Source: a virus. From it: 64,000 bases of DNA. The notes below the pieces were generated by a model. The model had not been told where the DNA came from. It saw nothing but the letters and a program-made list of their open reading frames with translations, and did not search any database. The stretch is from IMG/VR virus record IMGVR_UViG_3300005573_000055, positions 64,001-128,000 of that record; one strand, written 5' to 3'. Both the position numbers and the translations under genes were made by a program. This document shows positions 29,842 to 45,128 of the stretch, one piece after another; within the stretch, counting starts at the first letter, position 1; the number at the start of each line of letters is the position of its first letter.

Positions 29842-30163
29842 TTTTCCGCATAATTACAGTAATCAACACAGAAATAGCATTCGACATAGTCAATCCCAAA
29901 ATACCACCAGCAACAGCATCACCAAAGCCAAGCATCGAAACAAGGAAGCAAGTAACAAACAAATCAAGCAGGAAATACCTGCCGAGACTGAAAAACCTAC
30001 CAATATTGCGGAACAATGAAAATACCTTGCCAAAGAAATCAACAATAAAATTTCCCTTCGGCCGATAAATATACACATTCTCCAAGAAAGGCCTAAGCTC
30101 CAAATACCAAAACCACACAGCTACAACAACCATTGCAACACCAAGCAAAAGCAACATTGCCAT
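29804..30163 (-). CDS. Membrane protein
   Basis: Three hydrophobic segments; GGAG RBS. Confidence 0.6.
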   Translation of the reverse strand: MAMLLLLGVAMVVVAVWFWYLELRPFLENVYIYRPKGNFIVDFFGKVFSLFRNIGRFFSLGRYFLLDLFVTCFLVSMLGFGDAVAGGILGLTMSNAISVLITVIMRKNARRKSEILRGV

Positions 30164-30390
30164 AGCTTACTTCTCCTTTATTGTTTTAAACTTAGATAAA
30201 GCACCAAATGCCTTCTCCTGCAACTTAGAAGTTAATTTCCAGAAAGTCAAGAACAGCACGCTGTAAATAAACACTCTCAATGAAGAAAAGTACATCTTCA
30301 AGTAGTGTTTAACCTTAATGACCATAATGCCTCCTTAATGACTCTTAAATGCCTCTTTTAGGCTGTTTTTCATTTGAGTTAGAAAAGTAA

Positions 30391-30407
30391 GGCGGGTCTT
30401 GCCCGCC
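30391..30407 (-). terminator. Probable intrinsic terminator after ssb
   Basis: GGCGGG/CCCGCC hairpin followed by TTACTTTT on the minus strand. Confidence 0.55.
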
Positions 30408-30432
30408 CTGGAACACCTGGATTGGCAGAGGA

Positions 30433-30843
30433 TCAGAAGGGAAGGTCGTCCGGAAGCCCGACTCCCTCTACCTCTGCCAATTTGTCAGACAAAACCTGAC
30501 TTTCTGTCATACCAGCTTCCTCTGTACCGTTGCCATTACCTCTCAGGATGTTTATCTGAGTAGCAAGAACGTCGTAATAAGCTACCTGAGTGTCTTTATT
30601 ATAGGAAGAGCGAAGTTTCCCGACGATTAAGACCTTCTGTCCTTTCTTGAAGGAATTGGCTTTGTCGTCGAAGTTAGTGAAATAGGAAATATTGTGCCAG
30701 GTAGTATGCTTTGTCAGGCCGTTTCTGCCGTTGTAAAACTCGTCGTTGGCTAGTTTGAAGGCAACGAACTTTCGGCCATTTTCAGAATTGCGGATGATAG
30801 GATCACTGCCAATATTTCCTTCGAGAATTACTAAGTTAATCAT
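30433..30843 (-). CDS. ssb: Single-stranded DNA-binding protein
   Basis: NLVILEGNIGSDP...F.LA...TTWHNI...KKGQKVLIVGKL; acidic tail DDLPF. Confidence 0.95.
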   Translation of the reverse strand: MINLVILEGNIGSDPIIRNSENGRKFVAFKLANDEFYNGRNGLTKHTTWHNISYFTNFDDKANSFKKGQKVLIVGKLRSSYNKDTQVAYYDVLATQINILRGNGNGTEEAGMTESQVLSDKLAEVEGVGLPDDLPF

Positions 30844-31136
30844 GCTATTTCCTCCGATGTTTGTTTGAGTGTTAACTTTTTGGATTTGTAGAGATTGTCA
30901 AGAACAGTCTTAGAGACGTTTAATTCTCTGATGGTAAGCCCATTGCGGACGACTAGGGATATTTTCCCGAGCAAAGAGGATATAGTTTGTATATCTTTCT
31001 GGCTGCAGGAGCTTCCATCTAATTTTTGCGGGCGAAGGACATACATTGTTCCTTCTTTGCGGGAATCAAATTTCCTCACAATCTGGAACATGATGTCCTT
31101 CTTCTTACTCTTTGGAACTAAGTAGTACATTGTCAC
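30840..31136 (-). CDS. Hypothetical protein
   Basis: GGAGG RBS; coupled to ssb. Confidence 0.55.
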   Translation of the reverse strand: MTMYYLVPKSKKKDIMFQIVRKFDSRKEGTMYVLRPQKLDGSSCSQKDIQTISSLLGKISLVVRNGLTIRELNVSKTVLDNLYKSKKLTLKQTSEEIA

Positions 31137-31318
31137 ACCTCCTTTTTATTTGTTTATTCAAAATCCTTTTCTTTTCCTGATAGAAAGTCTCTAAAGCTTG
31201 TAGAGCACCAAAGACTTTCTAATCAGGGGCGAAAAGGCTTGTCTTTCAAATGCAAATCTATAGCACCTGCAAATGCAGGAAAGCTGCATTTTTGTATGCC
31301 TTTCTGCTACAGACTGAT

Positions 31319-31490
31319 GTTTATCCTCCGGGAAAGTCTTTCAAGAGGGTTTTTCATTCGCCGGAAAGGGAGTTTATCCTCCGGGAGAAACCTTTCAAGA
31401 GGCTTATCCTTTCTTGAGGGGTTTATCCTCCGGGGATGGGCCTTTCAAGATAGCTTATCCTCTCTTGAAAGAGGAGCTTTATCCTCCGGG
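31319..31490 (-). repeat. Four spaced CCCGGAGGATAAA repeats with intervening TCAAGA/TCTTGA hairpins (candidate sRNA)
   Basis: + strand TTTATCCTCCGGG at ~31320, 31373, 31422, 31478; two further AGGATAAGC motifs in hairpin loops. Confidence 0.75.
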
Positions 31491-31569
31491 AAGTAAGCAA
31501 ATTTTCTCGTGGATTGCTGGTCGAGGGCTATCAGGCAACCCACGCTAGCTATTTCAAACCTGTTTATGC

Positions 31570-31845
31570 TTAGAAATACTCCACAAAGTCGTGTTTTCTG
31601 TGGTATGTAAACTTTTTCTCGGGGGTTAGAATGGTGCTGAAGTCAAACTTTTCGTTTCTGGTGAAGGTTTTTATTTCATGCTCAAGTCCGGAAGGTGGTT
31701 CTTCGTCTAATTTTGCGGCGAAGAAGTAAATTTTACCTCCTTTGTAAGCTATGAGCTTGTATCCTTCAGCTTTCTGGATGGTTTCTGTCTGCAGGGTGTG
31801 TAGGTCCACAACTTTGGTAAGTCTAAAAGTCATTTGTCTCCTCAA
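31570..31845 (-). CDS. Hypothetical protein
   Basis: Co-oriented ORF; likely start MTFRL. Confidence 0.5.
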   Translation of the reverse strand: MRRQMTFRLTKVVDLHTLQTETIQKAEGYKLIAYKGGKIYFFAAKLDEEPPSGLEHEIKTFTRNEKFDFSTILTPEKKFTYHRKHDFVEYF

Positions 31846-32083
31846 AGTTTTCTTCTTTAAGCGTTTTTGCGAATCCTCTTGCAGCTTTACGCATTGCGTA
31901 GGCTGTAATAAACGCCATTTTGAAGAGTCCGTAGGTCATTTTAACGTCGTCAATGGTGGCTGTAACTTTGTCGGAGGCCTTCTGGATCTGCAGTTTGGCC
32001 TTTTTCTGTAGGTCTTGGATGTCTTCCTTTGCCGCTTGCTTGACTACTGGGAGTTCTTGCTTTAGGGCCTTGAAGAATTTCAT
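31823..32083 (-). CDS. Helical hypothetical protein (tandem paralog of 32080-32322)
   Basis: LKQELPVVKQAAKEDIQDL vs LKKELPVLKQAAKEDLQNL. Confidence 0.7.
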   Translation of the reverse strand: MKFFKALKQELPVVKQAAKEDIQDLQKKAKLQIQKASDKVTATIDDVKMTYGLFKMAFITAYAMRKAARGFAKTLKEENFEETNDF

Positions 32084-32322
32084 TGTTTATCCTCCTTTTT
32101 TAGCATTTCTTTTACGGTTATAGGTCTTTGGTTGGGTTTGGACATCATGTAAGCTGCCAGGAATCCTACTTTGACGGCTTCGTAGAACATTTTTGCTTCT
32201 TCAACAGTCTCTTTAGCCTTTTCTATCACATCTTTGGCGGTTTTGTCTAAATTCTGCAAGTCTTCCTTTGCTGCCTGCTTTAAAACTGGAAGTTCTTTCT
32301 TTAAGAGTTCTAAGAGTTTCAT
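32080..32322 (-). CDS. Helical hypothetical protein (tandem paralog of 31823-32083)
   Basis: Shared ELPVxKQAAKEDxQxL and FxxAYxM motifs; AAGGAGG RBS. Confidence 0.7.
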   Translation of the reverse strand: MKLLELLKKELPVLKQAAKEDLQNLDKTAKDVIEKAKETVEEAKMFYEAVKVGFLAAYMMSKPNQRPITVKEMLKKEDKQ

Positions 32323-32342
32323 TGTTACCTCCTTGGTTTTTG

Positions 32343-32591
32343 TTATGGCATTACACTTGCCCTGAGACGGGCTAAGATATCCTTGTATTTTCTCCAGCTT
32401 TCTTTGTAATCATCAGGTATCTGAATCCCGTCGCATATGCTCTGGACTCTGTCTATCTCGTCATACAGCCCTGATTCAGCAAAATTGTTCATGTGGTTTC
32501 GCATTTCGATGATTGTCTCCACGAAGGAGGCCTGAATTGCCTCCCTCGGGGTTAAATACTTTGGTACTAAATCACAGATTGAAGACTTCAC
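32343..32591 (-). CDS. Hypothetical protein
   Basis: Co-oriented ORF with RBS. Confidence 0.5.
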   Translation of the reverse strand: MKSSICDLVPKYLTPREAIQASFVETIIEMRNHMNNFAESGLYDEIDRVQSICDGIQIPDDYKESWRKYKDILARLRASVMP

Positions 32592-32599
32592 AGCCGCTC

Positions 32600-32884
32600 C
32601 TATTTATGTTCTAAAATGAATGTTGGATCTATGTAGGTGTATCTCTCAACATCCTCCAAGCGGACAACGCTGACGTACTCTAGGCCAGGACCTAATTTAA
32701 CTATAGCTTTAGCTCTGTCGGTGTAGCTTTTGATGATTGTGCTCTCTGGTTCAATACCCAGGCTTTCTAATCTGGACATGGCCTTCTGGATTGCAGCTTC
32801 GCGCAATAGGGTATCGTTGTACCTTGCCAGAAAGTCCTGAAGCGGCATTCTGTGCCCTTTGTGAACTACCATTATTTCTGCCAT
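32600..32884 (-). CDS. Hypothetical protein
   Basis: GGAGG RBS. Confidence 0.55.
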   Translation of the reverse strand: MAEIMVVHKGHRMPLQDFLARYNDTLLREAAIQKAMSRLESLGIEPESTIIKSYTDRAKAIVKLGPGLEYVSVVRLEDVERYTYIDPTFILEHK

Positions 32885-33124
32885 TTATTCCTCCGTTATT
32901 TGTTTTATGTGTTCGTTAACCATTCTTGCTAAGCCTTCATGTCTGGGAATAAGCGTAAGCTCCTTCTTCCCGGGGAGATATTGGCTGGCAATTACTGTTC
33001 GGCAGTCATTAATTATCTGACTTGCCGTCTCTCCCTCTTCAACCGAAATAGTGAACTTAATGGTCTCCTGGTGAAATCTTTCCAAGGGAGCTGAAAATTC
33101 GTATTCGATTTGCACAAGTTTCAT
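32885..33124 (-). CDS. Hypothetical protein
   Basis: AGGAGG RBS. Confidence 0.55.
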   Translation of the reverse strand: MKLVQIEYEFSAPLERFHQETIKFTISVEEGETASQIINDCRTVIASQYLPGKKELTLIPRHEGLARMVNEHIKQITEE

Positions 33125-33144
33125 TTTTCCTCCTTTGTTAGTTA

Positions 33145-33573
33145 TTATTTTCTTCCAGCATCAGCAGGTATCTCTCCCAGGCGGGCAGTGTCCCATTTTT
33201 CGAGTCGGAAATCCCCTTGCCTTAGGAGGTTCTTAATTGTCCAGCATGCTTTAAGCGTCTCTTCGTAATGGTTTATATTTTTCTTCTTAGGCTTACCATT
33301 TAGAGCCCAGCTTAAAGCAACCATTGAGTCTGAGAATACGATGGCCTTCTTGAAGCCTTTGGCAATCAGCCATTGGAGCCCGATAATTATTGCCACAAGC
33401 TCCAGGAAGTTGTTCGAATAAGGCTTTTGCGAGTCCCAGCTGTGGACTATACGTCCTCTATATGTCACTTTTGCGCCGCCTAAACCAGGATTGCCGGAGG
33501 ACCAGGCATCTACAGTTATATAGGGGTATTCCTCCCCTTCGGCGGTAATAACAGTTTTTTCCTTAACGATCAT
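33145..33573 (-). CDS. rnhA: Ribonuclease HI family protein
   Basis: ITVDAWSSGNPG, SNNFLELVAI, FSDSMVALSW, KWDT..LGEIPADAGRK. Confidence 0.88.
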   Translation of the reverse strand: MIVKEKTVITAEGEEYPYITVDAWSSGNPGLGGAKVTYRGRIVHSWDSQKPYSNNFLELVAIIIGLQWLIAKGFKKAIVFSDSMVALSWALNGKPKKKNINHYEETLKACWTIKNLLRQGDFRLEKWDTARLGEIPADAGRK

Positions 33574-33588
33574 TACTCCTCCTTGTTT

Positions 33589-33804
33589 TTATTCAACTGA
33601 TAAAGCTAAAGATAGCGGTCTATGCAGCACACTCTGCCCGCAGAATGGACAGATCTCCCTTTCTTCTATCATGTCTGTAAAGACTGTCATTCCGCAGGAT
33701 CTGCATACGATTACTGTTTGCTCTTCGGCGGGATCTTCGATTCTGTCAACGCCGAAAATTTCGTTAATAGAAAACAGTTCTTCCGGGCGGAGAATTATCT
33801 CCAT
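33589..33804 (-). CDS. Small zinc-ribbon protein
   Basis: CRSCG ... CPFCG. Confidence 0.6.
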   Translation of the reverse strand: MEIILRPEELFSINEIFGVDRIEDPAEEQTVIVCRSCGMTVFTDMIEEREICPFCGQSVLHRPLSLALSVE

Positions 33805-34030
33805 AGTAACCTCCTATTTTTTGTTAATAAATTGGTTATTTTATGTGGTGCAAAGAGTAGGCTTTTTTGATGCAGAGCTTACTCTGCAGTCTGCCCTTTG
33901 TGTTTCGGATGGCGCTTGTAGACGGTTTTCGGCGTTATCGGCCTACTCACCTTCTTTGGCAGCGGAATTCTGATCTTGGGTTTTTTGATCTTAGTACCTT
34001 TCATTTGATTATCTCCTATTATGTATAGAG

Positions 34031-34051
34031 AAAGCGGCATTTAGCCGCTTT
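34031..34051. terminator. Hairpin terminator (possibly bidirectional)
   Basis: AAAGCGGC-ATTTA-GCCGCTTT right at the stop of 34051-34497. Confidence 0.55.
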
Positions 34052-34497
34052 TAATCCAAATAATCGTCTAAAGCCTTTTGACGCAGTGGTTCTAAGGCAT
34101 CCATGATTTCGTTGATGCCGTCCCACTGCTCTTCGGCGTAGTTGAACTCTTTGACCCTAAGAGACTGCTTGACTTTTCGGAAAGTCTCCGGGTCAAGCTT
34201 TCCGGAGTAGACCTGCAAAACGGAGGCTGGAACTGGACCGTCTGTGATGCGTAAGCTGAATCTCTCTCTTGGGAACACTCTGTCGGCTGTTGTGTCCCCT
34301 TTGAGGGATACGTCGTGCTGATCTTTAAGCGACGGCCACTTACAGAGAACAACTGCTCTGACAACGTTCTCTGAAATGATGTCTGTGATAACGAACTCGA
34401 GGTTTTTCTCGGGATATTTCCAGATCTGGCCTTCTTCAAGGCGATCTGGTTTGTTGAGTAAATACTCAAGATAAGCGTGTTCTTCAAAGTGTGTCAC
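34051..34497 (-). CDS. Hypothetical protein
   Basis: 148 aa; AGGAGG RBS. Confidence 0.6.
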   Translation of the reverse strand: MTHFEEHAYLEYLLNKPDRLEEGQIWKYPEKNLEFVITDIISENVVRAVVLCKWPSLKDQHDVSLKGDTTADRVFPRERFSLRITDGPVPASVLQVYSGKLDPETFRKVKQSLRVKEFNYAEEQWDGINEIMDALEPLRQKALDDYLD

Positions 34498-34700
34498 AAT
34501 TCCTCCTTTAATAATTGTTGCAGGTATAATTTATCACTTCTGCGCATGGCCCTTCTTATCTTGGCCTTTAGGTGACCTTTGGGCCTGCTTTTGTTGTTGC
34601 GCTCCTTTATCCAGCGATATTCTTCAGTCAGGCGTGCTGGATAATGGAGCTGTTCATTTTTAACCATTAGTTCCTCCATTTTAATTGTCTTTGTCTGCAA
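34494..34700 (-). CDS. Small basic protein
   Basis: Co-oriented ORF. Confidence 0.45.
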   Translation of the reverse strand: MQTKTIKMEELMVKNEQLHYPARLTEEYRWIKERNNKSRPKGHLKAKIRRAMRRSDKLYLQQLLKEEL

Positions 34701-34862
34701 TTTCAGTGATTAATGTGAACAAAGCGAACAGGAATATCATTCCGAACTCGTATGCCATAATAGCGGGTCTATCGTCCCCCGTTTCGTTACAGTATATGGC
34801 AACTGAAAATATGATAACCAGTGATAACAGAGCAAGGAAGATGAGTGATTTCATTTTACCTC

Positions 34863-35147
34863 CTATGATAATTTGATTTTAATTAAGATATATTCAACCG
34901 CTTTGCCGTCCGGAGCAACAGCGGTTCTTAGTTCGTAGTAGTTTTTGAGTTCGAATGAGTCGAGGATCTCAGTTTTGTCCATAACCTTCTTGTTTAAGGG
35001 AACTAATTCGATAAGATAGGCTTCCCAAACTTCGCCTTCTCTGGCGAGTTTGGCATTTATAAAGGCTGGGAAGATCACCTTCCCGTCTTGAAATATCGGA
35101 GCGCTTGAGAGCTTCCCGTACTTATCTTTTGTTACTTTGAGTTCCAT
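34863..35147 (-). CDS. Truncated duplicate of the N-terminal domain of 35161-36087
   Basis: MELKVTKDKYGKLSSAPIFQDGKVIFP...EGEVWEA vs MELTITRNKFGELAGSPIFQDGKVIFP...EGEVWEA. Confidence 0.7.
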   Translation of the reverse strand: MELKVTKDKYGKLSSAPIFQDGKVIFPAFINAKLAREGEVWEAYLIELVPLNKKVMDKTEILDSFELKNYYELRTAVAPDGKAVEYILIKIKLS

Positions 35148-35160
35148 TTTTATCTCCTTG

Positions 35161-36087
35161 TTAGTTTATAATCTCTTCTGAGAGGACGGTTTCTCTCTCT
35201 AAGCAGTGTGAAACCTCTTTGAATTCGAGGATTTCACTGCTTAATTCTTTGAAACCTTCTCTTTCGAGGGGTAAATTGTGATCAGCTGTCCATTTATATC
35301 CAATCTGTGCTATCTTGGTATAGCAATAGCGACGTGAGTCAACTCTTGACTCACGGACATTATCCTCACTGTTAGAATATTTTGGAGCGTAGCTGCTCCA
35401 TCTTTCAATAATTCTCTTTACTTTTCTGACATCGATGTCCAGCTCAAACTCTTTGGATTCGACTCTTCTTGACAGAAATTCCTTCTCTACCACCTCGAAG
35501 GTTGTAGTGTCTTTTACGAAGCCGCGGTATTCAGCGACTTCCTTCTCTATATTCTCCCAGACTTTTAATTTCTTTGCATTCAAGTCGACTTCGCAGTTGT
35601 AGTCGCTGCTGAAGACCTTTCCGGTTGCGACTACTCTGATGATTTTGTTGTCAATAGACATAACTCTCTTGTATGTCTCTATTTCTTTTTTGTATTTATC
35701 GGCGATTTCAACAGGCAGATCTTTCCAATAGAAGTAGTAATTCGTATGGTCTGCCTTTACTTTCCCACCGACTCTGTAATATTTGATGTATGAAACCCCC
35801 TCTAGTATTCTTACATATCCATTAGAATAATAGTGCTCTTTGATTTGAGGGGCCGGCAATTCGGGAAGGATCAAGCGAAATACTCCCTTGAACATAGGTT
35901 TCCCTTTGCGGTCAACCTTGTTTAAGGGAATGAGCTTTACCAGTTCGGCTTCCCAGACTTCTCCTTCTTTGGCGAGTTCTGGGTTTTCAAAGACCGGGAA
36001 GATTACCTTTCCGTCCTGAAAGATTGGAGAGCCTGCGAGCTCTCCGAACTTATTTCTAGTTATTGTTAATTCCATTTTCATCTCCAT
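35161..36087 (-). CDS. Hypothetical protein
   Basis: 308-aa ORF downstream of a motif-bearing intergenic region. Confidence 0.65.
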   Translation of the reverse strand: MEMKMELTITRNKFGELAGSPIFQDGKVIFPVFENPELAKEGEVWEAELVKLIPLNKVDRKGKPMFKGVFRLILPELPAPQIKEHYYSNGYVRILEGVSYIKYYRVGGKVKADHTNYYFYWKDLPVEIADKYKKEIETYKRVMSIDNKIIRVVATGKVFSSDYNCEVDLNAKKLKVWENIEKEVAEYRGFVKDTTTFEVVEKEFLSRRVESKEFELDIDVRKVKRIIERWSSYAPKYSNSEDNVRESRVDSRRYCYTKIAQIGYKWTADHNLPLEREGFKELSSEILEFKEVSHCLERETVLSEEIIN

Positions 36088-36131
36088 ATGTTAGTTCACG
36101 GTCTCGGAGTGGTAGATATCCACTCCTTTGC

Positions 36132-36210
36132 CAATACTAATGTAGTTCGATTGACAGTGTGTGTTAATGCAGGCGTGTGTGTGTCCTGGCGGCTTTCCTT
36201 TTAGCCGCCG
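36132..36210 (-). promoter_or_regulatory. Repeated (AC)n...AATCGAACTACATTAG motif, copy 1
   Basis: + caatactaatgtagttcgatt followed by GT tracts and a GGCGGCT/AGCCGCC hairpin; 20/21 identical to 36505-36525. Confidence 0.65.
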
Positions 36211-36243
36211 CGTGATTGGAATTATCCGCCAGCACATAAAAAA

Positions 36244-36468
36244 CTATTTCAGCAGATATTCCTTTTCGATCTCGTTTGTCTTCTCGTCGTAGCGGTATAC
36301 CCATACTACCGCATCGTCGCTGACAAGTCCGGATTGGATGCGCTCCTTGAGGAGCTCGTAATCTTCCTCCGTCATTAGGATGCCGGAGGCGTCGTGAATG
36401 CCACCGTCGGCGATGAAGAATACGCCGTAAGGACGGGGATCTTGTGAAAATATTGATAGTAAGTCCAT
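36244..36468 (-). CDS. Hypothetical protein paralogous to the C-terminal half of 19928-20341
   Basis: PYGVF...SGILMTEEDYELLKERIQSG...IEKEYLL. Confidence 0.65.
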   Translation of the reverse strand: MDLLSIFSQDPRPYGVFFIADGGIHDASGILMTEEDYELLKERIQSGLVSDDAVVWVYRYDEKTNEIEKEYLLK

Positions 36469-36504
36469 GTTACTCCTCCTATTTTAAGTGTTGTTTATTA
36501 TCAT

Positions 36505-36607
36505 CAATGCTAATGTAGTTCGATTAATAGATGCGTGTGTGCTAATGGGAGCGTGTGTGTGTCAATGCGGGCGTGTGTGTGTCGAGGCGGCTCCCCTTTT
36601 AGCCACC
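36505..36607 (-). promoter_or_regulatory. Repeated (AC)n...AATCGAACTACATTAG motif, copy 2
   Basis: + caatgctaatgtagttcgatt followed by GT tracts and a similar hairpin. Confidence 0.65.
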
Positions 36608-36773
36608 GCACGTTCAAAATTACCCCTTAGTGGGGTAATTAAAAAAAATAAATACAATATTCACCCGATGAAAGGTGAATATATGGAAGGCTCATCAGCC
36701 CTCCTCCTTTTGTTTGACTGCCCCACTTTCCCGGGGCTTGGGGTTTTTTAAGGTGGTTTTCTCCACCATCATT

Positions 36774-36822
36774 GCCCCCACGCCAGACTTGAACTGGCTG
36801 CTGGCCCTACCCAGGGTGGGGC
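36774..36822 (-). ncRNA. Anticodon-less tRNA-like element A
   Basis: GCCCCAC-C-CTGG[GTAGGG]CCAG-CA-GCCAG[TTCAAGT]CTGGC-GTGGGGG-C: acceptor-like stem, D-like hairpin, canonical T arm. Confidence 0.75.
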
Positions 36823-36842
36823 GGCAAGGTAGGCAGACGTGA

Positions 36843-37130
36843 CTATTTAATCACGTCGCCTACCTTGTACTCGGGGTTGTGGCTTACTGAAACCACGTAT
36901 CCCCCGAGTTTGGGGTCAAAAACTGCGATGCTGCCGACGGTGTGCGCATACTTATGTATGAGCACTGCGGCTACCGGAAGGGATGCTGGCCCGTTGACTT
37001 TTAGCAACGGGATCCCTTTAATTTCCGGGGCGTTGTCTTTTACAAACTGAACGAGTTCGGCGTTTGTTGCCGGGTCGCCGAACCCGATCGTTAATGTGTC
37101 GTTATTAAATGACATATTGAATAATGCCAT
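36843..37130 (-). CDS. csx3: Csx3/Crn3-family ring-nuclease-like protein
   Basis: LKVNGPASLPVAAVLIHKYAHT...AVFDPKLGGYVVSVSH...KVGDVI, close to the Csx3 signature HKYAHT..AVYDPRLG.VV.SH...GDVI; GGAGG RBS at MALFN. Confidence 0.88.
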   Translation of the reverse strand: MALFNMSFNNDTLTIGFGDPATNAELVQFVKDNAPEIKGIPLLKVNGPASLPVAAVLIHKYAHTVGSIAVFDPKLGGYVVSVSHNPEYKVGDVIK

Positions 37131-37176
37131 GTTAACCTCCTTTTTAAAGTTATTAAATAATAATTTATGATGAATT

Positions 37177-37231
37177 TGGCTCAGGCGGGACTTGAACACC
37201 GCTCTCTCAGGCTTCCAGCAGCCACTGAGCC
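37177..37231 (-). ncRNA. Anticodon-less tRNA-like element C
   Basis: GGCTCAG-T-GGCT[GCTGGA]AGCC-TGAGAGA-GCGG(T)G[TTCAAGT]CCCGC-CTGAGCC-A. Confidence 0.7.
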
Positions 37232-37237
37232 ACCACA

Positions 37238-37630
37238 CAAGCTATCTTAGTAGCTCGATAGCTTGCAGTCTCGCTGATCACCCCTTCCCTTGAGCTCCGA
37301 TGCTACTATCGTTGCTCAAGGTTCCGTCGGGTTTACTCAGCTACCCGAAGCCCAATTAGCGTTACCCAGGACGCGCCACGTGGAGGCTTGGGCTTTTGCG
37401 TCCCACAACATTACTGGCTAAGTGGGACAGCCAGTGTCCGTTATGTGGCTGATCCGTGGAGCATTGCACTCCGGTGAGTGGACGCCACATCGGCCTGCTG
37501 AGGCGAGGCCACACCTTGGGTCTTCGAGCCGCTTGGGCGGAATGGGTCCACGGCTCTGAGACCCATAAACCTATAAGCCAGGCTTAGCCTAGCTTATAGG
37601 CTATTCTTTATCCCCTTAAAGGGACCACAT
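37238..37630 (-). ncRNA. Hairpin/pseudoknot-dense non-coding tract (candidate structured RNA)
   Basis: Perfect 7+7 bp pseudoknot at 37400-37435; stems CCTTGAGC/GCTCAAGG, AAGCTATC/GATAGCTT, CCTATAAGC/GCTTATAGG, ATGTGGC/GCCACAT. Confidence 0.6.
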
Positions 37631-37763
37631 AGACACGGCGGAGGTAGGTTGGTTATATGACCCGGGTTAGGTGGGGTCCGCCGCTGATACATGCGAGCAG
37701 AGCGAATGTAGACTAAGTAGGTATAGCTCTGGCTTCCCGGGTCTGGTTGGTCTTCGCAAGGGA

Positions 37764-38014
37764 GTGTGTGTAGGCGGAGCGGGTACATGGAAGGTTTTAG
37801 CGACCCAGGTTAGGTGGGCACCGCCGGGTACACATGTGAGGTGGGGACGGAGCCATGGATGGTTTTAGCGACCCATGGAGGGGTGGTAGACTGGGGCGTG
37901 TGTGAGGCGGAGCGGAGGTGGGTTGATTTAGGGTCAACAGGTCAGGTTAGGTTGGCCCAGGTTGGTCAGGCTGGACAGGCCTCCGTTGGGGGCGTGTGTG
38001 AGGCGGAGCGGAGG
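37764..38014 (+). repeat. G-rich direct repeats
   Basis: GGGGCGTGTGTGAGGCGGAGCGGAGG at 37893 and 37989 (variant at 37764); CATGGAWGGTTTTAGCGACCCA at 37786 and 37854. Confidence 0.75.
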
Positions 38015-38023
38015 CCTGTCTTG

Positions 38024-38389
38024 CTAGTCTAACTCGCTCCAGTCGAAGCCGTTAATTCTAACTACCGGCTTCTTCTTTGTAATCGCTGAAGCGAGTTTCC
38101 TAGCGTTGCAATACGCTGGCCGTGCACCACAATTGACGTGCAGCACTTCGGCAACGATCTCTTTCCAGTTATTCCTCTCTTTGAGACGTTGCACGTACCA
38201 GTGCTCCACGTTGGGTCGGGTATCTTTGATGCCACTGCCCCATTTGATCTGGATAGCATAAGCTATCCCATCAATTATGACAATGACATCAATCTTGGCC
38301 TCGTGGTCAAGGCGTTTATGTGTAATCACCTCGAATCCACTATTCCTGAGCGCATCGACAATCATGCGCTCGAGGATGAGACCATTCAT
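38024..38389 (-). CDS. PD-(D/E)xK restriction-endonuclease-fold protein
   Basis: LERMIVDALRNSGFEV...DHEAKIDVIV...AIQIK. Confidence 0.7.
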   Translation of the reverse strand: MNGLILERMIVDALRNSGFEVITHKRLDHEAKIDVIVIIDGIAYAIQIKWGSGIKDTRPNVEHWYVQRLKERNNWKEIVAEVLHVNCGARPAYCNARKLASAITKKKPVVRINGFDWSELD

Positions 38390-38880
38390 AATGCCCTCCC
38401 GTTGTGGTTTAGCCAGCTACGATCTGGCTCGGGCAGCTTCTTATAGCCCTCCTGTGGGTCGAATTGATAGATCTCTACATTGAAATGATGGAGACCTATC
38501 AACATCCCTATCAGGGCCGATAGACCAATCGGACCGCTGAGGACTAATTTTATCTTGCAATTTTGGTTTTGTGCCATAGCACTGTAAACCTCTGTTGCAA
38601 GTTTTTTATAGTCCTCGTCGGTCACTAACATTGGTCTACCGAGCACGAGGTTGACGTCTATCAGCGTGTCAAGTTCGCCAAAGTAGGCTTTGACAGCTTC
38701 GCTAACAGGACGTCCTACCTGCAGGGCTATAATATAGTCCTTGCCGCCTTCATTGGCATATTTTTTCTTCTTGGCAATCTTGGTCTGAGACCAGATTTTA
38801 ACAGTGATTGCCAAGGAGACTAATGCCAACAAAGGCTCGGCAATAGCCCAAGCCTGGGAGATGAATTCAAAGAGGTTCAT
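38386..38880 (-). CDS. N-terminal TM helix plus short SAVED-like domain
   Basis: IKLVLSGPIGLSALIGMLIG...VEIYQFD...Y resembles the C-terminal SAVED signature (IHLFxxGPxxLAxxLG...VYx...Y). Confidence 0.65.
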   Translation of the reverse strand: MNLFEFISQAWAIAEPLLALVSLAITVKIWSQTKIAKKKKYANEGGKDYIIALQVGRPVSEAVKAYFGELDTLIDVNLVLGRPMLVTDEDYKKLATEVYSAMAQNQNCKIKLVLSGPIGLSALIGMLIGLHHFNVEIYQFDPQEGYKKLPEPDRSWLNHNGRAL

Positions 38881-38932
38881 GACTGCCTCCCGATGGCTAA
38901 ACTTAGAACTGGTATAACGGTCTATAGAATGG

Positions 38933-39754
38933 CTAAACTATCCTGCCTCCGTTATACCAGTACATGAACCCTCCTGGAGCCCATTTTGTCCTAAGCCCCA
39001 TTCTCAGTTCAGGGAACTTTCTGGAAACCTCATCAAGATATTCCATAGTGGTCTCCAGCGGCAATGGTCGCCAATCAATTCCAGACACGGGCTTGTATAC
39101 CCTGACTGTCCAGAATTTATTGTCGACATTGCCATGCTTAACAACCATCTCTGCGATGTGCAGGAAATCATCCAAGGTGGTTGTAGAAAATACGCATGTG
39201 CGTACATCTACAAGCACACCTTTATTGCTTAAGATCTCCTGAACACGCAGGGAGTTGTTGAGCATTTTTTCTCCCTGACCGTTTCTGAGGCCAGCGCGCA
39301 TATTGAATTCTGCGCCGTCTGCGGCCTTAAGATCAATTGCTGCATAATCCAAATACGGCAGCAGCATTTCAACAAATTTAGGACTGCTGCCATTATGCGC
39401 AATTGAAATCTTCTGGCCACGTTCAGCACAGAAGCGCGCTATATCCATAGAGTCTTTGATAAAGACACAAGGATCGCCTCCAGAAAGACGAATCCTTTCG
39501 CCTTTATCTAAGGACTCCTGGATCAGAGAGAATATCTCTGAGGCTTTATATCTTCCGGCAGTGATTATGTCACCTTTGTCGGTGACAAACTGCCCGTCGC
39601 GTTTGCAATATGGGCAGTGGAAGTTACACCTGCCGAAAGAGATAATCCTCATCATCTCTATTTCCCTACCAAATAACTTGAGGAAATAGGCCGGTCGCAC
39701 TTCTGCAGCCGGCTTTCCTCCGTAGGGAATGAGAGTGAGTATTCTCTCTTTCAT
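38933..39754 (-). CDS. Radical SAM enzyme (NrdG/PflA activase-like)
   Basis: CNFHCPYC, LSGGDP, HNGS, DYAAIDLKA, VDVRT; GGAGG RBS at MKERIL. Confidence 0.9.
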   Translation of the reverse strand: MKERILTLIPYGGKPAAEVRPAYFLKLFGREIEMMRIISFGRCNFHCPYCKRDGQFVTDKGDIITAGRYKASEIFSLIQESLDKGERIRLSGGDPCVFIKDSMDIARFCAERGQKISIAHNGSSPKFVEMLLPYLDYAAIDLKAADGAEFNMRAGLRNGQGEKMLNNSLRVQEILSNKGVLVDVRTCVFSTTTLDDFLHIAEMVVKHGNVDNKFWTVRVYKPVSGIDWRPLPLETTMEYLDEVSRKFPELRMGLRTKWAPGGFMYWYNGGRIV

Positions 39755-39813
39755 GTGGCCTCCAGGCTGGAGGTTCATGTTCATTGATTTATTTTATCTA
39801 TTATCTACTATCC

Positions 39814-42576
39814 TTAATCCTCCTTTCTTAATTTAAACTTAACGCTGAAGCCAGTCGGCTTGCCAGTCTTAACACTGATGTAAGGATATACCTCGTCAAC
39901 TCGGTAATATCCTTCATCAATGTTGCGGCATTCATCGCCGACTTTGAACTTCAGCTTCTGACCGCCTACTGAGATGCTAAAGGTCTTTATTTCTTTGCCA
40001 TTAGCATCTCTTTCGGCGGTAATTTCTACGAGTGAATCTCTGTGTTTTGTTCTGGCATTGATGTCCAATGCTTCGAACATTTCACAGAGATTCAGCTCGT
40101 CAGCGTATACCCGCACCTCGAACGTTGGCAGTGCGGCATTAAAGAAGTTGCTTGTGGCAATATACCACTTCAACTCCTTGGTGCCGCCAATGCCAAGCTC
40201 GCAGAGCACCTCAAGGAGTACCTGCCATACGCCATTGATGAACAGGTATCCTTGAGATTTGCGCTTCTGCGGGTCATTGCTGGTTGCTATGTATTCGAGG
40301 ACCGAATATACAACAGCCTTTTGGTCCTCTTTACATAGTGCCATGAACTGCAAAGAATACTTCTTATTAATTTCTCGTATCTTTGCAATTCTGGCATCAA
40401 CGTCTCGCTTGAGCTCTTCGATTTTATTAAGAGCTGCAATTTCGCCCTTATAATCGAAGTAGCTCCTGAGTTTTCTGCCGTATTTAGCGAGACGCTCAGC
40501 AATGGCCTGCTGCTGGCGCACACTCAGGTGCGGGTACACCTGGTCGGCAATACCAGCCTGCAGCTTGCCAAAGACCTCTTTGACAATTCCGTTCATATTT
40601 CTGACGAAATTGTCAATTATGGAGTCTTTGACAATCCGAGAATCCCCTTCCTCTCTGAAGAATCGAGGAGCAAGGAATGCAAAGCATTGAGACTGCTTGA
40701 TTGCATCAATGCAAGCCTCAACCTTTACCGCCTGCTCTTCATATCCTTCAGCTGAACCCTTCTGGACTCTATCAATAATGGGTTCAAACTGGAAGGAATT
40801 CTCCTGCAGGGTCTGGTAGAGGGCCATGAGATCCTTGTCTTTGTTGCCAAAGACGAAGATCTCGACCTTTAGGGCAGCCTTAAGCATCTCAACATTGGCT
40901 GCGCGGCCAATGATGTATGCTTTGCCCGCGAAGTCTCTAACAGATTGTAATAGTTTTTCATCTTCTGTTAGAGTTGGCCCGATAGCTTTGATAGCTGTGG
41001 CGGTAAGTGTATCTACAAGACCGCTTACAGCCATGAAAGCTTTGGCCACATCTGCGGGCAGGTTGCCCTTAGGTCCGGCTGCCTGAGGAGCTTCGGCTTT
41101 AGCCTTAGCTTCCCCATCAAGAGGTGTTTCGGCAGCTGGTACCCACTCTACATTACTCCAACCAGCTTTGCGAACAATAGAATATTCGCCAAGCTGATTT
41201 GGATTTCTGTAGAGCAGATACTTGCCTCTGCCCTTCTTGATGAGGACAAAGCTATCGTCGAAATCAGGACCGCCGTGTCGGGGTTTGAGTCTGAGATACT
41301 CATCCCAGCCAACGCACACGTTGTTCTGATCGACAATAACTCTGCCTTCAGGCAGCCTTCCGAAGAATACCTTGCCATCTTCGACTTTAACGATAGATGT
41401 AAGGTATCTTCTTTTGGCCCCTGGCACGAAGACTCTGGGCCATTGGGACTCATCGGCTTTGCCGGTGCCCCATTTTGGCCCATAGAACTTCTTGCCGACC
41501 AGCCGAATAACGTCCATGACCAGAGGTCTAAAGACGCTCCAGTCTACTCCGGCTTTGATGAACTCTTTGAGTCTCCACCCGCTACTGCCAAGTGGATTGA
41601 GCTCATCTTCTTCCGGATCAACGTTGTCCGGCATTGTCTCTTCGGCATCGCCGTCGTCGATGCTGAGGATGATCTCGTTAAATTTCTCACGATCGGTGAG
41701 AGCATTAACAATATATCTCACCGTCTCACCGAGATATTTAACGAGTTTTTCGGCCCTCAGCTGACCAACTGCCAATAGATTGAGTGCAGATTGCACATCA
41801 ATCATGACGTGGTCGTTGCCGTGGACCTCCTCAGCAATCGCCCAGACAACATCACGAGCTTTGACGCCGTGGTCTTTGCACCACTGAGCGTTAATGGCAA
41901 GCTCGCGTTTGATGTTGCTTTCGGCGATATAAATATCGTTAACAGGGACTTTGTTGGAAACAACAATGTGTCCCTTAACGAATTTATCACCGAGCAACAT
42001 CGTGATGCTGCCTCGACGGCGAACGCCGAGTAGCGCTGCGGCGCCGCTGCCAGCAACTACCTGGCCGTCTAAGGCTATGTAACCAGGTATATACTTAATA
42101 TTAATATACTCTGGTATAGCCTTGAGGCCTTTGGCCGAAGATAGCCTCAACAGTCGGCCGATTCTCTTTCCAGCCGTCTGTTTGTTGGCATCTTCTTTGG
42201 CCTTAATCGGTAGCTGCATCAGCTTTCCAGCACTGTCAAATATTTTGACAATGTACAGATCTGTATCTTTGTGATAACAGATCGTACTATTGTCAAAATG
42301 ATTTGCAATGCTGTCAAGCTGCGGCTTGGTGTCATTGCCGATAGTCGAGTGTTCAACTATCGTCAAGACCCAGCCTTCAGCAAAAGCATCTATAAATCCT
42401 GGTCTGAGATCAGGATTATAGAACTTTTGCTGAACTGGCAGCGCTCCGATCAATTCCTTTTCGGCAGCTAAGATGGCTTGCTTGCTTTCTCCGTAGAGAT
42501 AAGCAGTGAAGCCATCCTGATAGTTGCCGATTAGGAATGCCTTAACTGTCATGGCAGCCTCCTTCATGCTTGCCAT
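39814..42576 (-). CDS. YonO/cellular-RdRP-like single-chain two-barrel polymerase with atypical DFDD loop
   Basis: GKRIGRLLRLSS, LDGQVVAGS, KFVKGHIVV, IYIAESNIK, RVFVPG, HGGPDFDDSF, LLYRNPN, IGRAAN, IIDRVQKG parallel RdRP/YonO motifs. Confidence 0.72.
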   Translation of the reverse strand: MASMKEAAMTVKAFLIGNYQDGFTAYLYGESKQAILAAEKELIGALPVQQKFYNPDLRPGFIDAFAEGWVLTIVEHSTIGNDTKPQLDSIANHFDNSTICYHKDTDLYIVKIFDSAGKLMQLPIKAKEDANKQTAGKRIGRLLRLSSAKGLKAIPEYINIKYIPGYIALDGQVVAGSGAAALLGVRRRGSITMLLGDKFVKGHIVVSNKVPVNDIYIAESNIKRELAINAQWCKDHGVKARDVVWAIAEEVHGNDHVMIDVQSALNLLAVGQLRAEKLVKYLGETVRYIVNALTDREKFNEIILSIDDGDAEETMPDNVDPEEDELNPLGSSGWRLKEFIKAGVDWSVFRPLVMDVIRLVGKKFYGPKWGTGKADESQWPRVFVPGAKRRYLTSIVKVEDGKVFFGRLPEGRVIVDQNNVCVGWDEYLRLKPRHGGPDFDDSFVLIKKGRGKYLLYRNPNQLGEYSIVRKAGWSNVEWVPAAETPLDGEAKAKAEAPQAAGPKGNLPADVAKAFMAVSGLVDTLTATAIKAIGPTLTEDEKLLQSVRDFAGKAYIIGRAANVEMLKAALKVEIFVFGNKDKDLMALYQTLQENSFQFEPIIDRVQKGSAEGYEEQAVKVEACIDAIKQSQCFAFLAPRFFREEGDSRIVKDSIIDNFVRNMNGIVKEVFGKLQAGIADQVYPHLSVRQQQAIAERLAKYGRKLRSYFDYKGEIAALNKIEELKRDVDARIAKIREINKKYSLQFMALCKEDQKAVVYSVLEYIATSNDPQKRKSQGYLFINGVWQVLLEVLCELGIGGTKELKWYIATSNFFNAALPTFEVRVYADELNLCEMFEALDINARTKHRDSLVEITAERDANGKEIKTFSISVGGQKLKFKVGDECRNIDEGYYRVDEVYPYISVKTGKPTGFSVKFKLRKED

Positions 42577-42600
42577 GCAGTTTTTGGCTTCTCTTCTATT

Positions 42601-43392
42601 TTAGAAGGACATCAAGCTTGGTCTTTCGCCAAGCTCTTCGAGCTTGCGAAGACTAGCTTGATATGTTTCCTTTAAGTATGCTAATGTCTCCTTGTATTGG
42701 GCAACAAAGTCTCGCTTCATCTTACGGGCGAGACTGTTGCCAAATTCCTTTTTGAAATGGGCCGTTTTGTATTTAATATATTTGGCCCAATTTTTGATCT
42801 TTTTCCGGAAATATTTAACATCCCGGAAAATTTCTTTGTATTCTTTTAACCAAATCTTTTCGGCTTTTTTAGCCTTTTTGATTTGGTCGAATAATTTAGC
42901 TGCAGCATCCATAATGGTAAGATGCTTCTTACCGATTATGTCTACTGCCGTCCATGCGGATTTGGCACCGACTTCTTGTGCCTTCTCTGCATAGAACTTA
43001 TTCAGTTGCTCAATTGATTTATTAAGCTTTTTGAGCACTGAACTGTAAATTCTTTGGGCTCTGGTCAAACCGATACCGCGTACCGTGACCTGACCCTTCA
43101 TTCTTCTAAGGGTGGTGACGGCACGGGCTTTGTCGACCAATTTGTAAGCCCACTGAAGCTTCCAGCTGAGCCTTCTGACTCTAGCTTTCAGCTTTTTTTC
43201 TGTCTCATTCATTTTATTTATTTTGATTTTTGGGGCCCTTGCCACCTTGTCCTTTAGGACGAGGAGCTTGGCGGCCTGGACGGCGCCGGCCCCGACAGTT
43301 TTGTCCCCCGAAGCGGCTCTGTGGAGCACATCACGAGCCTCCTTCAGGGTGGCTGGCAGTTCTACCAGCCAATCCTTTTTAATTTTTTTCAT
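42601..43392 (-). CDS. Highly basic Lys/Arg-rich helical protein
   Basis: Very high K/R content; start moved to MKKIKK with GAGG RBS. Confidence 0.7.
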   Translation of the reverse strand: MKKIKKDWLVELPATLKEARDVLHRAASGDKTVGAGAVQAAKLLVLKDKVARAPKIKINKMNETEKKLKARVRRLSWKLQWAYKLVDKARAVTTLRRMKGQVTVRGIGLTRAQRIYSSVLKKLNKSIEQLNKFYAEKAQEVGAKSAWTAVDIIGKKHLTIMDAAAKLFDQIKKAKKAEKIWLKEYKEIFRDVKYFRKKIKNWAKYIKYKTAHFKKEFGNSLARKMKRDFVAQYKETLAYLKETYQASLRKLEELGERPSLMSF

Positions 43393-43399
43393 GATTTCC

Positions 43400-43720
43400 T
43401 CAAATTTTTGCTTGCAATACACCGGCGGTTTTTGTATATTGCAAGCGGTTTTGGTTTTTACCAAACCGCCCTTAGCCGGGTAGCGTGTTTAGGCACGCTG
43501 CCCGACACATCTAATTGAATTTAGCGTCCCAATTAGCAAGGACGGTGCGTTGAAAAAGCAAGTCGCACGCTTGCCCTGTCAAACTCTACGGCACTGACAG
43601 GCATGCCCTTGTTGATTTGGCGCCACGAACCAGGCTCAACAAGCCAAGCCTGAGCAAAGCAGGAAGCGCGCATCGGTGGCACACCTCGCCGAAGCGGGTG
43701 CTCATGCGTGCTGCAATTAT
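43400..43720 (-). ncRNA. Structured leader/ncRNA upstream of the basic protein-polymerase operon
   Basis: Stems GCTTGCAATA/TATTGCAAGC, GCGGTTT/AAACCGC, CCTGTCA/TGACAGG, CTCAGGCT/AGCCTG; pseudoknot at 43511-43544. Confidence 0.55.
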
Positions 43721-43770
43721 TTTTATTCCCCGTGTGTGTTATATTACACAGGGAACAATTCTAAAAAAAA

Positions 43771-43830
43771 TAGTTCGATTCAAGTGTGTGTGTGTGGCGT
43801 GTGTGTGATGCACGCTACGCATACACATAA
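43771..43830 (-). promoter_or_regulatory. (AC)n...AATCGAACTA motif, copy 3
   Basis: + tagttcgatt followed by GT-dinucleotide tracts. Confidence 0.6.
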
Positions 43831-43861
43831 AAGCGATTCAATCGTTAATCAACTAATTGAA

Positions 43862-45058
43862 TCACTTTTTTATTAACTTGAGGGCCGCCTTGAGACCCTC
43901 AAGAATACCGTCGACATCGCGGACATCCACTCTGTCGACGTATAGGATTTTCCCATCTCCTACAGTACGCCATCTTGCACGTGGAGTACTGTATTTATAA
44001 GCATAATTATCCAAGTAAATCCATGTGGACTTACCGGATAATTTATTGTCTTCGAGATGGGAAATCCCATCATAGTCGCCAATGTAGAGGATATAGTCGA
44101 ATTGACTATATATCTCACGCTGGCGACTTTCCTCATCAACGTCTTTTTCTATTATGCTGCCATTTGAATTTGGCGCATAATATACTGAGACGTTGATTTC
44201 CTTGGCGAAATTAGCTAATTCTTGGGCGATCTTTTTAGTTGCGCCCGAGAATGTTACACAGGACCCGCTCTCATCGTTGGTGATGAGAATCTTTGGTCCG
44301 TCGTTCTTTCGCCAAGGATCATATACTGCGGGCAACGGATTTCTATGCGTTGCCCGCAGTATTTCATACTTTAGAGGGTTGATCTTTTCTTCCTCAATTG
44401 TGGGTAACCCTCTCAAACCCCACAATTGGGCCAAAATTTCAGCACAAGCCGCCTCTGTGCGGCGATCGATTTCAATGTCGCCGCCGCCACCAACACATGT
44501 GGCCGGCGACTTGTGCTTATGAATTAATTTTATTTTTGCATCGGGATTTCCATCAAGCTGTTTTTTGACAGCTTCCCGATGCTTTTTAATTAATTCTTGC
44601 TTCTTCCGTCTCTTATAAGAGACGAGAAGAGCTAAATTTTTATTGAGGGCTTCTTGTGCCTTTTCATAATCCTGAGCGTCTTTACGCCCAAGATTATCAG
44701 GCTTTGAAGCCCTCTTTTTGGGCGAGGAGGGCTTGTCTTTGCCTTTGCCCTCCTCTTTCCCATTTCGAATCTCTTGATTAGCGACGCTATCGCCCCCATG
44801 ATAGTCGTCGCTAATTTTTTCAATAGCGTCTTGCACCTCTGCTTGCATCTGGTGCAGACGCTTTTCTGAAACTTTGTAGAGTTTTCCACCGCCCAGCTTC
44901 AGCGCCTCATCCATTGTGAGGTCCCTGCAGAAGCCAGGGCCATATATAAAACTATGGACACCATTTTCATATAAGGTGCCCTTTTTCAGATCCGGTACGT
45001 ATTCATAATGATATACTTTACCGGATCTATCTGTAATCAAAAAAGTGATTACTTTCAT
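43862..45058 (-). CDS. VWA-like (MIDAS) partner of the MoxR ATPase
   Basis: LITNDESGSC (DxSxS), LYIGDYDG; charged linker; follows MoxR. Confidence 0.7.
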   Translation of the reverse strand: MKVITFLITDRSGKVYHYEYVPDLKKGTLYENGVHSFIYGPGFCRDLTMDEALKLGGGKLYKVSEKRLHQMQAEVQDAIEKISDDYHGGDSVANQEIRNGKEEGKGKDKPSSPKKRASKPDNLGRKDAQDYEKAQEALNKNLALLVSYKRRKKQELIKKHREAVKKQLDGNPDAKIKLIHKHKSPATCVGGGGDIEIDRRTEAACAEILAQLWGLRGLPTIEEEKINPLKYEILRATHRNPLPAVYDPWRKNDGPKILITNDESGSCVTFSGATKKIAQELANFAKEINVSVYYAPNSNGSIIEKDVDEESRQREIYSQFDYILYIGDYDGISHLEDNKLSGKSTWIYLDNYAYKYSTPRARWRTVGDGKILYVDRVDVRDVDGILEGLKAALKLIKK

Positions 45059-45074
45059 ATTTTCTCCACTCTTA

Positions 45075-45123
45075 GCCCCCACGCCCGACTTGAACGGGCT
45101 GCTGGCCTGATCCAGGGTGGGGA
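45075..45123 (-). ncRNA. Anticodon-less tRNA-like element B
   Basis: TCCCCAC-C-CTGG[ATCAGG]CCAG-CA-GCCCG[TTCAAGT]CGGGC-GTGGGGG-C; compensatory A-T to C-G change in the T stem relative to element A. Confidence 0.78.
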
Positions 45124-45128
45124 ACCAT

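Follow-up and report, generated by a model that had tools for sequence, protein, structure and literature searches.

A Csx3/Crn3-family protein encoded outside any CRISPR locus, between conserved RNA elements, on a large uncultivated tailed phage

The csx3 locus and the phage that carries it

The DNA analyzed here, referred to as the window, is a stretch of 64,000 nucleotides that corresponds to bases 64001-128000 of a 155.5-kb IMG/VR virus record (IMGVR_UViG_3300005573_000055), estimated to be 88% complete. The record encodes a large terminase (TerL) and a portal protein and is a large uncultivated tailed phage. An earlier note, made from the sequence without database searches, had placed a stand-alone homologue of the ring nuclease Csx3/Crn3 at 36843-37130 of the window; the open reading frame (ORF) lies exactly there, on the minus strand, and encodes a protein of 95 aa (P0001). 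The gene and its surroundings comprise the following features, in window coordinates.

36657-36682, minus strand: terminator-like hairpin followed by a T run, after mini-tRNA A; probably the end of the csx3 unit
36774-36822, minus strand: mini-tRNA A, 21 nt after the csx3 stop codon, with acceptor stem CCCCAC/GTGGGG and T arm GCCAG-TTCAAGT-CTGGC
36843-37130 (stop codon included), minus strand: csx3/crn3 homologue of 95 aa, identified by its ORF, its translation, a match to PF09620 and an AF2 model
37136-37140, minus strand: Shine-Dalgarno sequence GGAGG, read from the sequence, five bases before the csx3 ATG (37130)
37172-37348, minus strand: conserved structured RNA of ~165 nt, 78% identical to L002:6451-6623 of a related phage; mini-tRNA B is its 3' end
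37177-37231, minus strand: mini-tRNA B, with acceptor stem GGCTCAG/CTGAGCC, hairpin GGCT/AGCC and a T arm with the loop TTCAAGT
37349-37404, minus strand: candidate HDV-like self-cleaving ribozyme, with predicted cleavage 5' of G37404 (Rfam HDV_ribozyme, 35.6 bits)
37405-38023, minus strand: ORF-free, GC-rich leader (GC 54%) with (CA)nCGCC repeats, upstream of csx3, where transcription of the csx3 unit probably starts

A start of csx3 at the GTG at 37238 was considered and rejected, since its frame would cross the structured RNA and would mismatch the N-termini of homologues (MA[LV][FY]N...).

The phage has no cultured relative among 50,697 GenBank phage records, against which tblastn of the Csx3 protein and megablast of 24 kb both gave zero matches; the nearest cultured TerL is that of a Moorella phage, at 33% identity, which is uninformative on the host. 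A 154-kb record (G001, with its csx3 locus L002) is syntenic throughout and shares ~60 proteins with the phage, at 22-73% identity. GC content reaches 40-54% in an island at 28000-47000 of the window and is about 35% in the remaining genome. G001 is syntenic across this island, where its own GC rise is only slight, and its synteny over the whole genome rules out a chimeric contig as the source of the island. Elsewhere, at 11658-12060, the window holds ~400 nt of an 8-mer (AGTCATAA) and of 40-56-nt tandem repeats, which resemble replication-origin iterons.

The earlier note had seen neither cas genes nor a CRISPR array in the window, and this holds for the window and for the entire 155.5-kb record. 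It had also pointed to a cas operon elsewhere on the contig as something that could explain the gene. Searches of the whole record (estimated 88% complete) found no RAMP protein, with positive controls matched, and no Csm1/Cas10, Cas10 palm domain or SMODS cyclase, each with control genomes matched; nor was there any CRISPR-like array. The RecE/Cas4-like domain of a 949-aa protein (50335-53184) was examined as a possible cas gene and set aside, as it matches recombination exonuclease families.

Family membership and genomic context of viral and cellular csx3

The phage protein is a genuine member of the Csx3/Crn3 family. The search against a Csx3 profile that the earlier note had proposed gave 44.4 bits for Pfam PF09620 (Cas_csx3), far beyond chance at a cut-off of 21 (E 1.5e-11), and the PADLOC Csx3 models matched at E 2.5e-17 and 1.6e-15; the equivalog cut-off of NCBIfam TIGR02579 (55.4) was missed, at 42.9 bits. 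The motifs quoted in the note are all present, with HKYAHT at residue 59, AVFDPKLG at 69, SH at 83 and GDVI at 91. Among PDB sequences, the chains of Archaeoglobus fulgidus Csx3 (AfCsx3) matched at E 4e-5 and about 28% identity. An AF2 model built on 40 homologues (pLDDT 96.4, pTM 0.85) led to the same protein, in that AfCsx3 chains make up the 11 best Foldseek matches (TM 0.71-0.81, rmsd about 2.0 A), followed by the cA4-sensing domain of Cat1 (9mud).

A. fulgidus Crn3/Csx3 (AF_1864; 3WZG, 3WZI, 6VJG, and 6YUD) and M. mazei Csx3 are among the closest known systems, both belonging to the same Pfam family as the phage protein. AfCsx3 is slightly larger (about 104 aa versus 95) and has the same fold (TM about 0.8, rmsd 2.0 A), and the equivalents of its H57, H61, D69, P70, and H80 are present in the phage protein. 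Unlike AfCsx3, however, the phage protein is encoded by a phage without a CRISPR locus, belongs to a cyanobacteria-rich bacterial subfamily, has Ala in place of H60 and Lys in place of R71, and reads NGP where AfCsx3 has an SGR loop.

Close relatives of the phage protein, at 41-53% identity, were found in 80 species genomes, mostly of filamentous cyanobacteria but also of a few Saccharibacteria and of one Entotheonella. These cellular members of the subfamily sit inside type III CRISPR operons: the ORFs within 6 kb of csx3 at 13 cellular loci include 23 RAMP proteins, 9 Cas10/Cmr2 palm domains, Csm2, Csm4, Cmr3, and Card1. HD_4 proteins also adjoin csx3 in 5 of the 13 sampled cellular type III loci. 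Another 13 loci in IMG/VR carry a relative of the phage protein. No cas family was detected among 137 ORFs neighboring csx3 in 11 viral loci, and a RAMP gene was found in none of 12 csx3-bearing viral records, the phage under study included, with positive controls matched and three of the records at least 98% complete. Genomic association with type III CRISPR-Cas is therefore absent for phage csx3 and present for the cellular members of its subfamily. As a viral gene that lies outside any CRISPR locus, on a record with TerL and portal genes and no cas genes, phage csx3 resembles the genes for AcrIII-1 and AcrIII-2.

The gene has a long history in phages. It is 64-68% identical in two relatives, G001 (at L002) and an 18-kb metagenomic contig (L104), and at 68% identity it encodes one of the best-conserved proteins shared with G001. 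The gene order of the island in L104 (AAA_5 ATPase, 400-aa protein, 863-aa protein, radical SAM protein, SAVED protein, small protein, RNA gap, and csx3) is the same in the window. Values of pN/pS among the three csx3 genes (window, L002, and L104) are 0.20-0.34, with synonymous sites saturated; purifying selection has thus preserved csx3 for a long time in this lineage, in three or more related phages.

A tree of 115 sequences groups the phage protein with those of L002 and L104 (the latter P0004) and with one metagenomic sequence (P0003), at an SH-aLRT value of 90. This group falls within a ten-member clade that includes the protein of another viral locus, L003 (SH-aLRT 91), and lies outside the cyanobacterial clade; the tree is unrooted, is built on few columns, and is poorly resolved. 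The earlier note had pictured a ring nuclease captured from a host, a view that finds no support in the placement of the protein in a small viral and metagenomic clade outside the cyanobacterial one, and the direction of any donation is not given by an unrooted tree.

The immunity conferred by type III CRISPR relies on cyclic oligoadenylate (cOA) alarms. Cells clear one of these, cyclic tetra-adenylate (cA4), with the small enzyme Csx3/Crn3, whose Mn2+-dependent cleavage of cA4 yields A2-P. Given that the cellular members of the subfamily lie in type III loci and the viral copies outside them, an anti-type III role is the best reading of the phage gene. On the analysis as a whole, we consider it fairly probable that the phage Csx3 is a functional ring nuclease that degrades host cA4 and so blunts type III CRISPR immunity. 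According to this proposal, the phage would make Csx3 during infection, and the protein would bind and hydrolyze the cA4 produced by Cas10 of a host type III CRISPR system; loss of cA4 would in turn keep Csx1/Csm6, Can/Card1, CalpL, TM-SAVED, and similar effectors off. By analogy with AfCsx3, cA4 would be enclosed by Csx3 dimers stacked head to tail, with D72 and K74 on one face and H59, H63, and H84 on the opposite face, which would bind the metal.

AcrIII-1 (DUF1874; SIRV1 gp29 and STIV B116) was the first viral ring nuclease anti-CRISPR. The role proposed here for the phage Csx3 is alike, namely, that of a small viral protein destroying cA4 to blunt type III CRISPR, whereas fold and chemistry are unrelated: AcrIII-1 is metal independent and uses His47, while Csx3 is Mn dependent and acts as stacked dimers. 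Two further viral proteins are comparable, namely, AcrIII-2, a ring nuclease of the SAVED type (PMC12751052), and AcrIII-3, a Csx15 whose status is so far proposed. Like the phage Csx3, each is a cOA-binding module of cells that also occurs in viruses, has been proposed to act as an anti-CRISPR, and holds cA4 between stacked units, although the protein families differ. AcrIII-2 has been tested experimentally, whereas the phage Csx3 is known here from its sequence and a model; its cA4 binding, catalysis, oligomerization, expression timing, and anti-CRISPR effect are what we infer.

The viral ring nucleases in the literature up to October 2026 are AcrIII-1 and AcrIII-2, which have been characterized, and AcrIII-3, which has been proposed (bioRxiv 10.64898/2026.10.26.761840). 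A survey of 28,114 phage genomes reported AcrIII-1, Csx16, and Csx20 and no Crn3 (PMC12409355). We found no published description of a viral Csx3 in the literature up to October 2026, and our literature search found neither biochemistry nor genetics of the bacterial Csx3 subfamily to which the phage protein belongs. New here are the long-term conservation of csx3 in a phage lineage, the co-resident DUF1874 and half-SAVED genes described below, and the ribozyme and mini-tRNA flanks. If active, the phage Crn3 would be the third cellular ring nuclease family in viral counter-defense, as well as the first handle on a bacterial Csx3 subfamily with Ala at the position of AfCsx3 H60.

The putative active site and the companion genes of csx3

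In AfCsx3, the D69A and H60A mutants are inactive and the R71A and H80A mutants strongly impaired, and H57 and H60, reported to be absolutely conserved, are the proposed Mn2+ ligands (PMC7371418). The corresponding residue pairs (phage protein/AfCsx3) are H59/H57, A62/H60, H63/H61, D72/D69, P73/P70, K74/R71, and H84/H80, and a profile alignment of the two proteins gives the same register as the PDB match. All of 120 homologues share H63, D72, P73, K74, and H84, and 119 of them have H59; the phage protein has all of these residues. The position of AfCsx3 H60 is Ala62 in the phage protein and A, S, T, G, V, or C among the 120 homologues. The phage sequence HKYAHT corresponds to HKYHHT in AfCsx3, which explains why the best PDB match of the phage protein is the H60A mutant. 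In addition, R71 is replaced by Lys and R46 by Pro throughout the subfamily; the change of R71 to Lys is conservative, and Lys74 is invariant in the subfamily. The strong Csx3 signature described in the earlier note is thus borne out as regards the family match and the motifs, but it is not fully canonical, given the changes at H60, R71, and R46.

Because Ala is the norm among the 120 homologues, Ala62 as a private inactivating mutation of the phage gene was ruled out. Moreover, the pattern of Ala at the H60 position with His63 is also seen in cellular copies of the subfamily that lie within type III operons. In the AF2 model, H59 and H63 are separated by one helical turn where the helix of residues 51-62 ends, making a two-histidine metal site plausible. 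Without H60, catalysis by the phage protein would rest on the i+4 histidine, H63.

The same alanine is the starting point for an alternative that we regard as unlikely, in which Csx3 serves as a cA4 sponge or decoy, maybe in filaments, with little or no cleavage. The AfCsx3 H60A mutant, which matches the phage protein at this position, is inactive yet binds cA4 in crystals (PMC7371418), and the Csx3 fold is a pure cA4 sensor in Cat1, the protein reached by Foldseek after the AfCsx3 chains (9mud; bioRxiv 10.64898/2026.10.26.761840). Csx15 offers a precedent, having been described as a good sponge and a slow nuclease (PMC13148439), and there are viral homologues (L008 and L009) without both helix histidines. 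However, H59, H63, D72, K74, and H84 vary little or not at all across the subfamily, and this extends to the copies in cellular type III operons, in which one would expect an off-switch enzyme. Furthermore, type III systems make so much cOA that sponging has been argued to be a poor way of countering them (PMC13148439). Degradation of cA4 remains the reading that we prefer for the phage protein.

The viral homologues lacking both helix histidines (L008:10001-10297 and L009:10001-10297) read AKSFSAV in this region and keep the DPK and SH motifs. A third viral homologue (L007:10001-10297) lacks the first helix histidine and likewise keeps DPK and SH. Judging from their sequences, all three may be non-catalytic variants, and in L008 and L009 the Csx3 fold is apparently kept without the helix histidines.

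Two further genes on the phage bear on cOA signaling.

18856-19212, minus strand: DUF1874/AcrIII-1-like gene of an 'IGY' subfamily (PF08960, 49.1 bits)
38386-38880, minus strand: gene for a 164-aa protein with an N-terminal transmembrane (TM) helix and a half-SAVED (CARF-like) cyclic-oligonucleotide-binding domain (Pfam SAVED, 30.7 bits)

The earlier note had contrasted csx3 with AcrIII-1 as the characterized viral ring nuclease. That contrast is incomplete, as the same phage also carries a DUF1874 gene, 18 kb from csx3 and of a subfamily with Tyr in place of His. The protein reads IGYRA where STIV B116 and Csx1-Crn2 read IGH(D/E)S, which puts Tyr at the position of the catalytic His (His47 of AcrIII-1). 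A word-based homologue search with this protein returned only itself, while a full HMMER search gave 370 matches at E<=1e-3, and the Tyr is common to 147 of the best 150 of these relatives. Thus, the Tyr variant is a large, conserved sister subfamily of DUF1874 rather than a decayed copy. In a phage that also has DUF1874, Csx3 may be superfluous as another cA4 nuclease.

DUF1874 and csx3 also co-occur in an unrelated 154-kb phage record, 98% complete (G005), and here the two genes are adjacent. At this locus (L006:10001-12085), the order is a 226-aa Csx3 fusion, a DUF1874/AcrIII-1 homologue whose GHES motif is intact, and an HD_4 protein, an arrangement that has the appearance of an anti-cOA cluster.

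The 164-aa protein combines one TM helix with the second half of a SAVED domain and has no effector domain; its PADLOC matches include SAVED4--SAVED (E 8e-19) and SAVED_TM (E 2e-17). Its gene lies two genes upstream of csx3, follows a radical SAM gene, overlaps the gene of a 121-aa protein, and is conserved together with csx3 in L104. The trio of radical SAM protein (NrdG-like, a weak match), TM half-SAVED protein, and 121-aa protein occupies 38024-39784 on the minus strand and is collinear in L104 and absent from G001. Since csx3 co-occurs with DUF1874 and half-SAVED genes, these associations point to cyclic-oligoadenylate signaling as the target.

Alternatively, Csx3 may be the off-switch of a cOA module of the phage's own, consisting of the radical SAM protein, the TM half-SAVED protein, and the small protein as a putative nuclease, and serving, for example, in the exclusion of rivals or the timing of lysis. 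Consistent with such a module, the radical SAM gene, the SAVED gene, the gene for the small protein (121 aa in the window and 125 aa in L104), the RNA, and csx3 are collinear in the window and L104, and PADLOC groups the SAVED protein with CRISPR-associated SAVED and SAVED_TM effector families. We nevertheless give this explanation little credence. No cyclase was found on the phage, so that the signal of the module would still need a host source, and the SAVED protein lacks an effector domain. G001, moreover, keeps csx3 and the RNA without the radical SAM and SAVED genes, indicating that csx3 is independent of both, and the neighbors of csx3 are unrelated in ten other viral records. Under the preferred reading, in which Csx3 degrades the cA4 of the host, a phage with csx3, Tyr-type DUF1874, and half-SAVED genes would make a compact test case for the layered degradation and sequestration of a single signal.

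RNA elements around csx3

The two tRNA-like elements that the earlier note had described on either side of csx3 are real and conserved, with compensated stems and homologous copies in two related phages; they are, however, anticodon-less mini-tRNAs rather than tRNA genes. Each of mini-tRNAs A and B consists of an acceptor stem, a small hairpin, and a T arm and has no anticodon arm. ARAGORN found no tRNA or tmRNA in the window or in the whole record, its relaxed mitochondrial mode giving noise only, and in the window Rfam returned no family at gathering score and no tRNA match at E<=1. Single-sequence folding z-scores of the mini-tRNAs are weak (-0.7 to -1.9), and the support for them lies in conservation and compensated changes.

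Across three phages, the homologous island contains eight A-type mini-tRNAs whose acceptor and T stems show compensated changes. The copies lie at 36774-36822 and 45075-45123 of the window (minus strand), L096:776-822 and 2100-2146, L103:12627-12674 and 13173-13220, and L104:250-296 and 2936-2994. As they also follow other genes of the island, the A-type elements are a general punctuation of the island, not specific to csx3, and they may act as punctuation signals for RNase P/Z.

Between the structured RNA upstream of csx3 and its L002 counterpart, RNAalifold identifies nine base pairs that are changed on both sides. In L002 the RNA lies on the other side of csx3, downstream of the gene, where its stems are compensated and it ends in CCA. 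An exact-motif scan of IMG/VR with the conserved core of this RNA found the L002 contig only.

Candidate HDV-like ribozymes occupy the same position upstream of csx3 in the window (35.6 bits, E 0.007) and in L104 (33.8 bits), both below the Rfam gathering score of 50. The HDV-like core (RF00094/RF02682) is a nested double pseudoknot of P1, P2, and P3/L3 with a J4/2 cytosine. Between the two candidates, P1 and P2 are wholly different in sequence yet fully paired, and P3/L3 is identical; the helices were compared by script, as MAFFT left the 3' halves out of register. Theta ribozymes, minimal HDV-like ribozymes of gut phages (PMC10879173), offer a parallel in that they too occur in tailed phages near a tRNA-shaped element. 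They differ in placement, however, sitting 3' of real tRNAs, whose trailers they trim, whereas the candidate here sits 5' of an RNA domain, a mini-tRNA, and a protein gene. At the viral locus L003, on a 136-kb contig of a more distant phage, a Pistol ribozyme (L003:10367-10431, plus strand; 62.5 bits against a gathering score of 34.5) begins 40 nt after the csx3 stop codon. It was the sole Rfam match at gathering score in seven other csx3-bearing viral loci (139 kb), six of which were without any family.

AfCsx3 was originally described as an RNA deadenylase. A further alternative is that the phage Csx3 acts on RNA and, for example, binds or trims the structured RNA and mini-tRNA accompanying its gene. 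A structured RNA ending in a mini-tRNA adjoins csx3 in three phages, on varying sides; self-cleaving ribozymes adjoin it as well (the candidates in the window and L104, and Pistol in L003), and an RNA tetraloop was bound by AfCsx3 in crystals (3WZI). The RNA activity of AfCsx3 has since been re-interpreted as cA4 mimicry (PMC7371418), however. In addition, A/C-type mini-tRNAs are found after other island genes too and are therefore a general feature of its transcripts, and the lack of any Rfam family at six of the seven other viral loci likewise speaks against a role in RNA metabolism. We judge an RNA substrate to be very improbable for the phage protein and retain the degradation of cA4 as its proposed activity.

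The flanks of csx3 point to a strategy of the phage for processing its mRNA. From these elements, which have good support at the sequence level, we infer a single transcription unit, in which the csx3 mRNA would be cut from a longer RNA by the candidate HDV-like ribozyme and by tRNA-processing enzymes. To our knowledge, such ribozyme and tRNA 'punctuation' of an anti-defense gene has not so far been described in phages. More tentatively, and with greater doubt than we attach to ring nuclease activity itself, csx3 can be pictured as a self-processing cassette, in which a (CA)nCGCC leader, a cut by the HDV-like ribozyme, and mini-tRNAs (or, in L003, Pistol) at the other end would yield a short, insulated, and stabilized mRNA. 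Together with the Tyr-type DUF1874 and the membrane half-SAVED protein, the product of this cassette would form a three-part arsenal against cOA.

The (CA)nCGCC motif of the leader has 9 matches, against 0.88 expected, of which eight are on the minus strand at 36172-43805, all intergenic in the GC-rich island; these repeats may be promoters of a phage-encoded polymerase. Similar CA-rich repeats lie ahead of the csx3 leader in L104. The related phages also hold other RNA elements. In L104, a 135-nt 'mini-tmRNA' (L104:11613-11747, plus strand) comprises the tRNA-like domain only and matches Rfam tmRNA at 63.9 bits, against a gathering score of 47, with ~290 model positions deleted. In L002, ~3 kb from csx3, a twister-P1-like match (L002:9483-9534, plus strand) reaches 39.9 bits, below the gathering score of 67.2.
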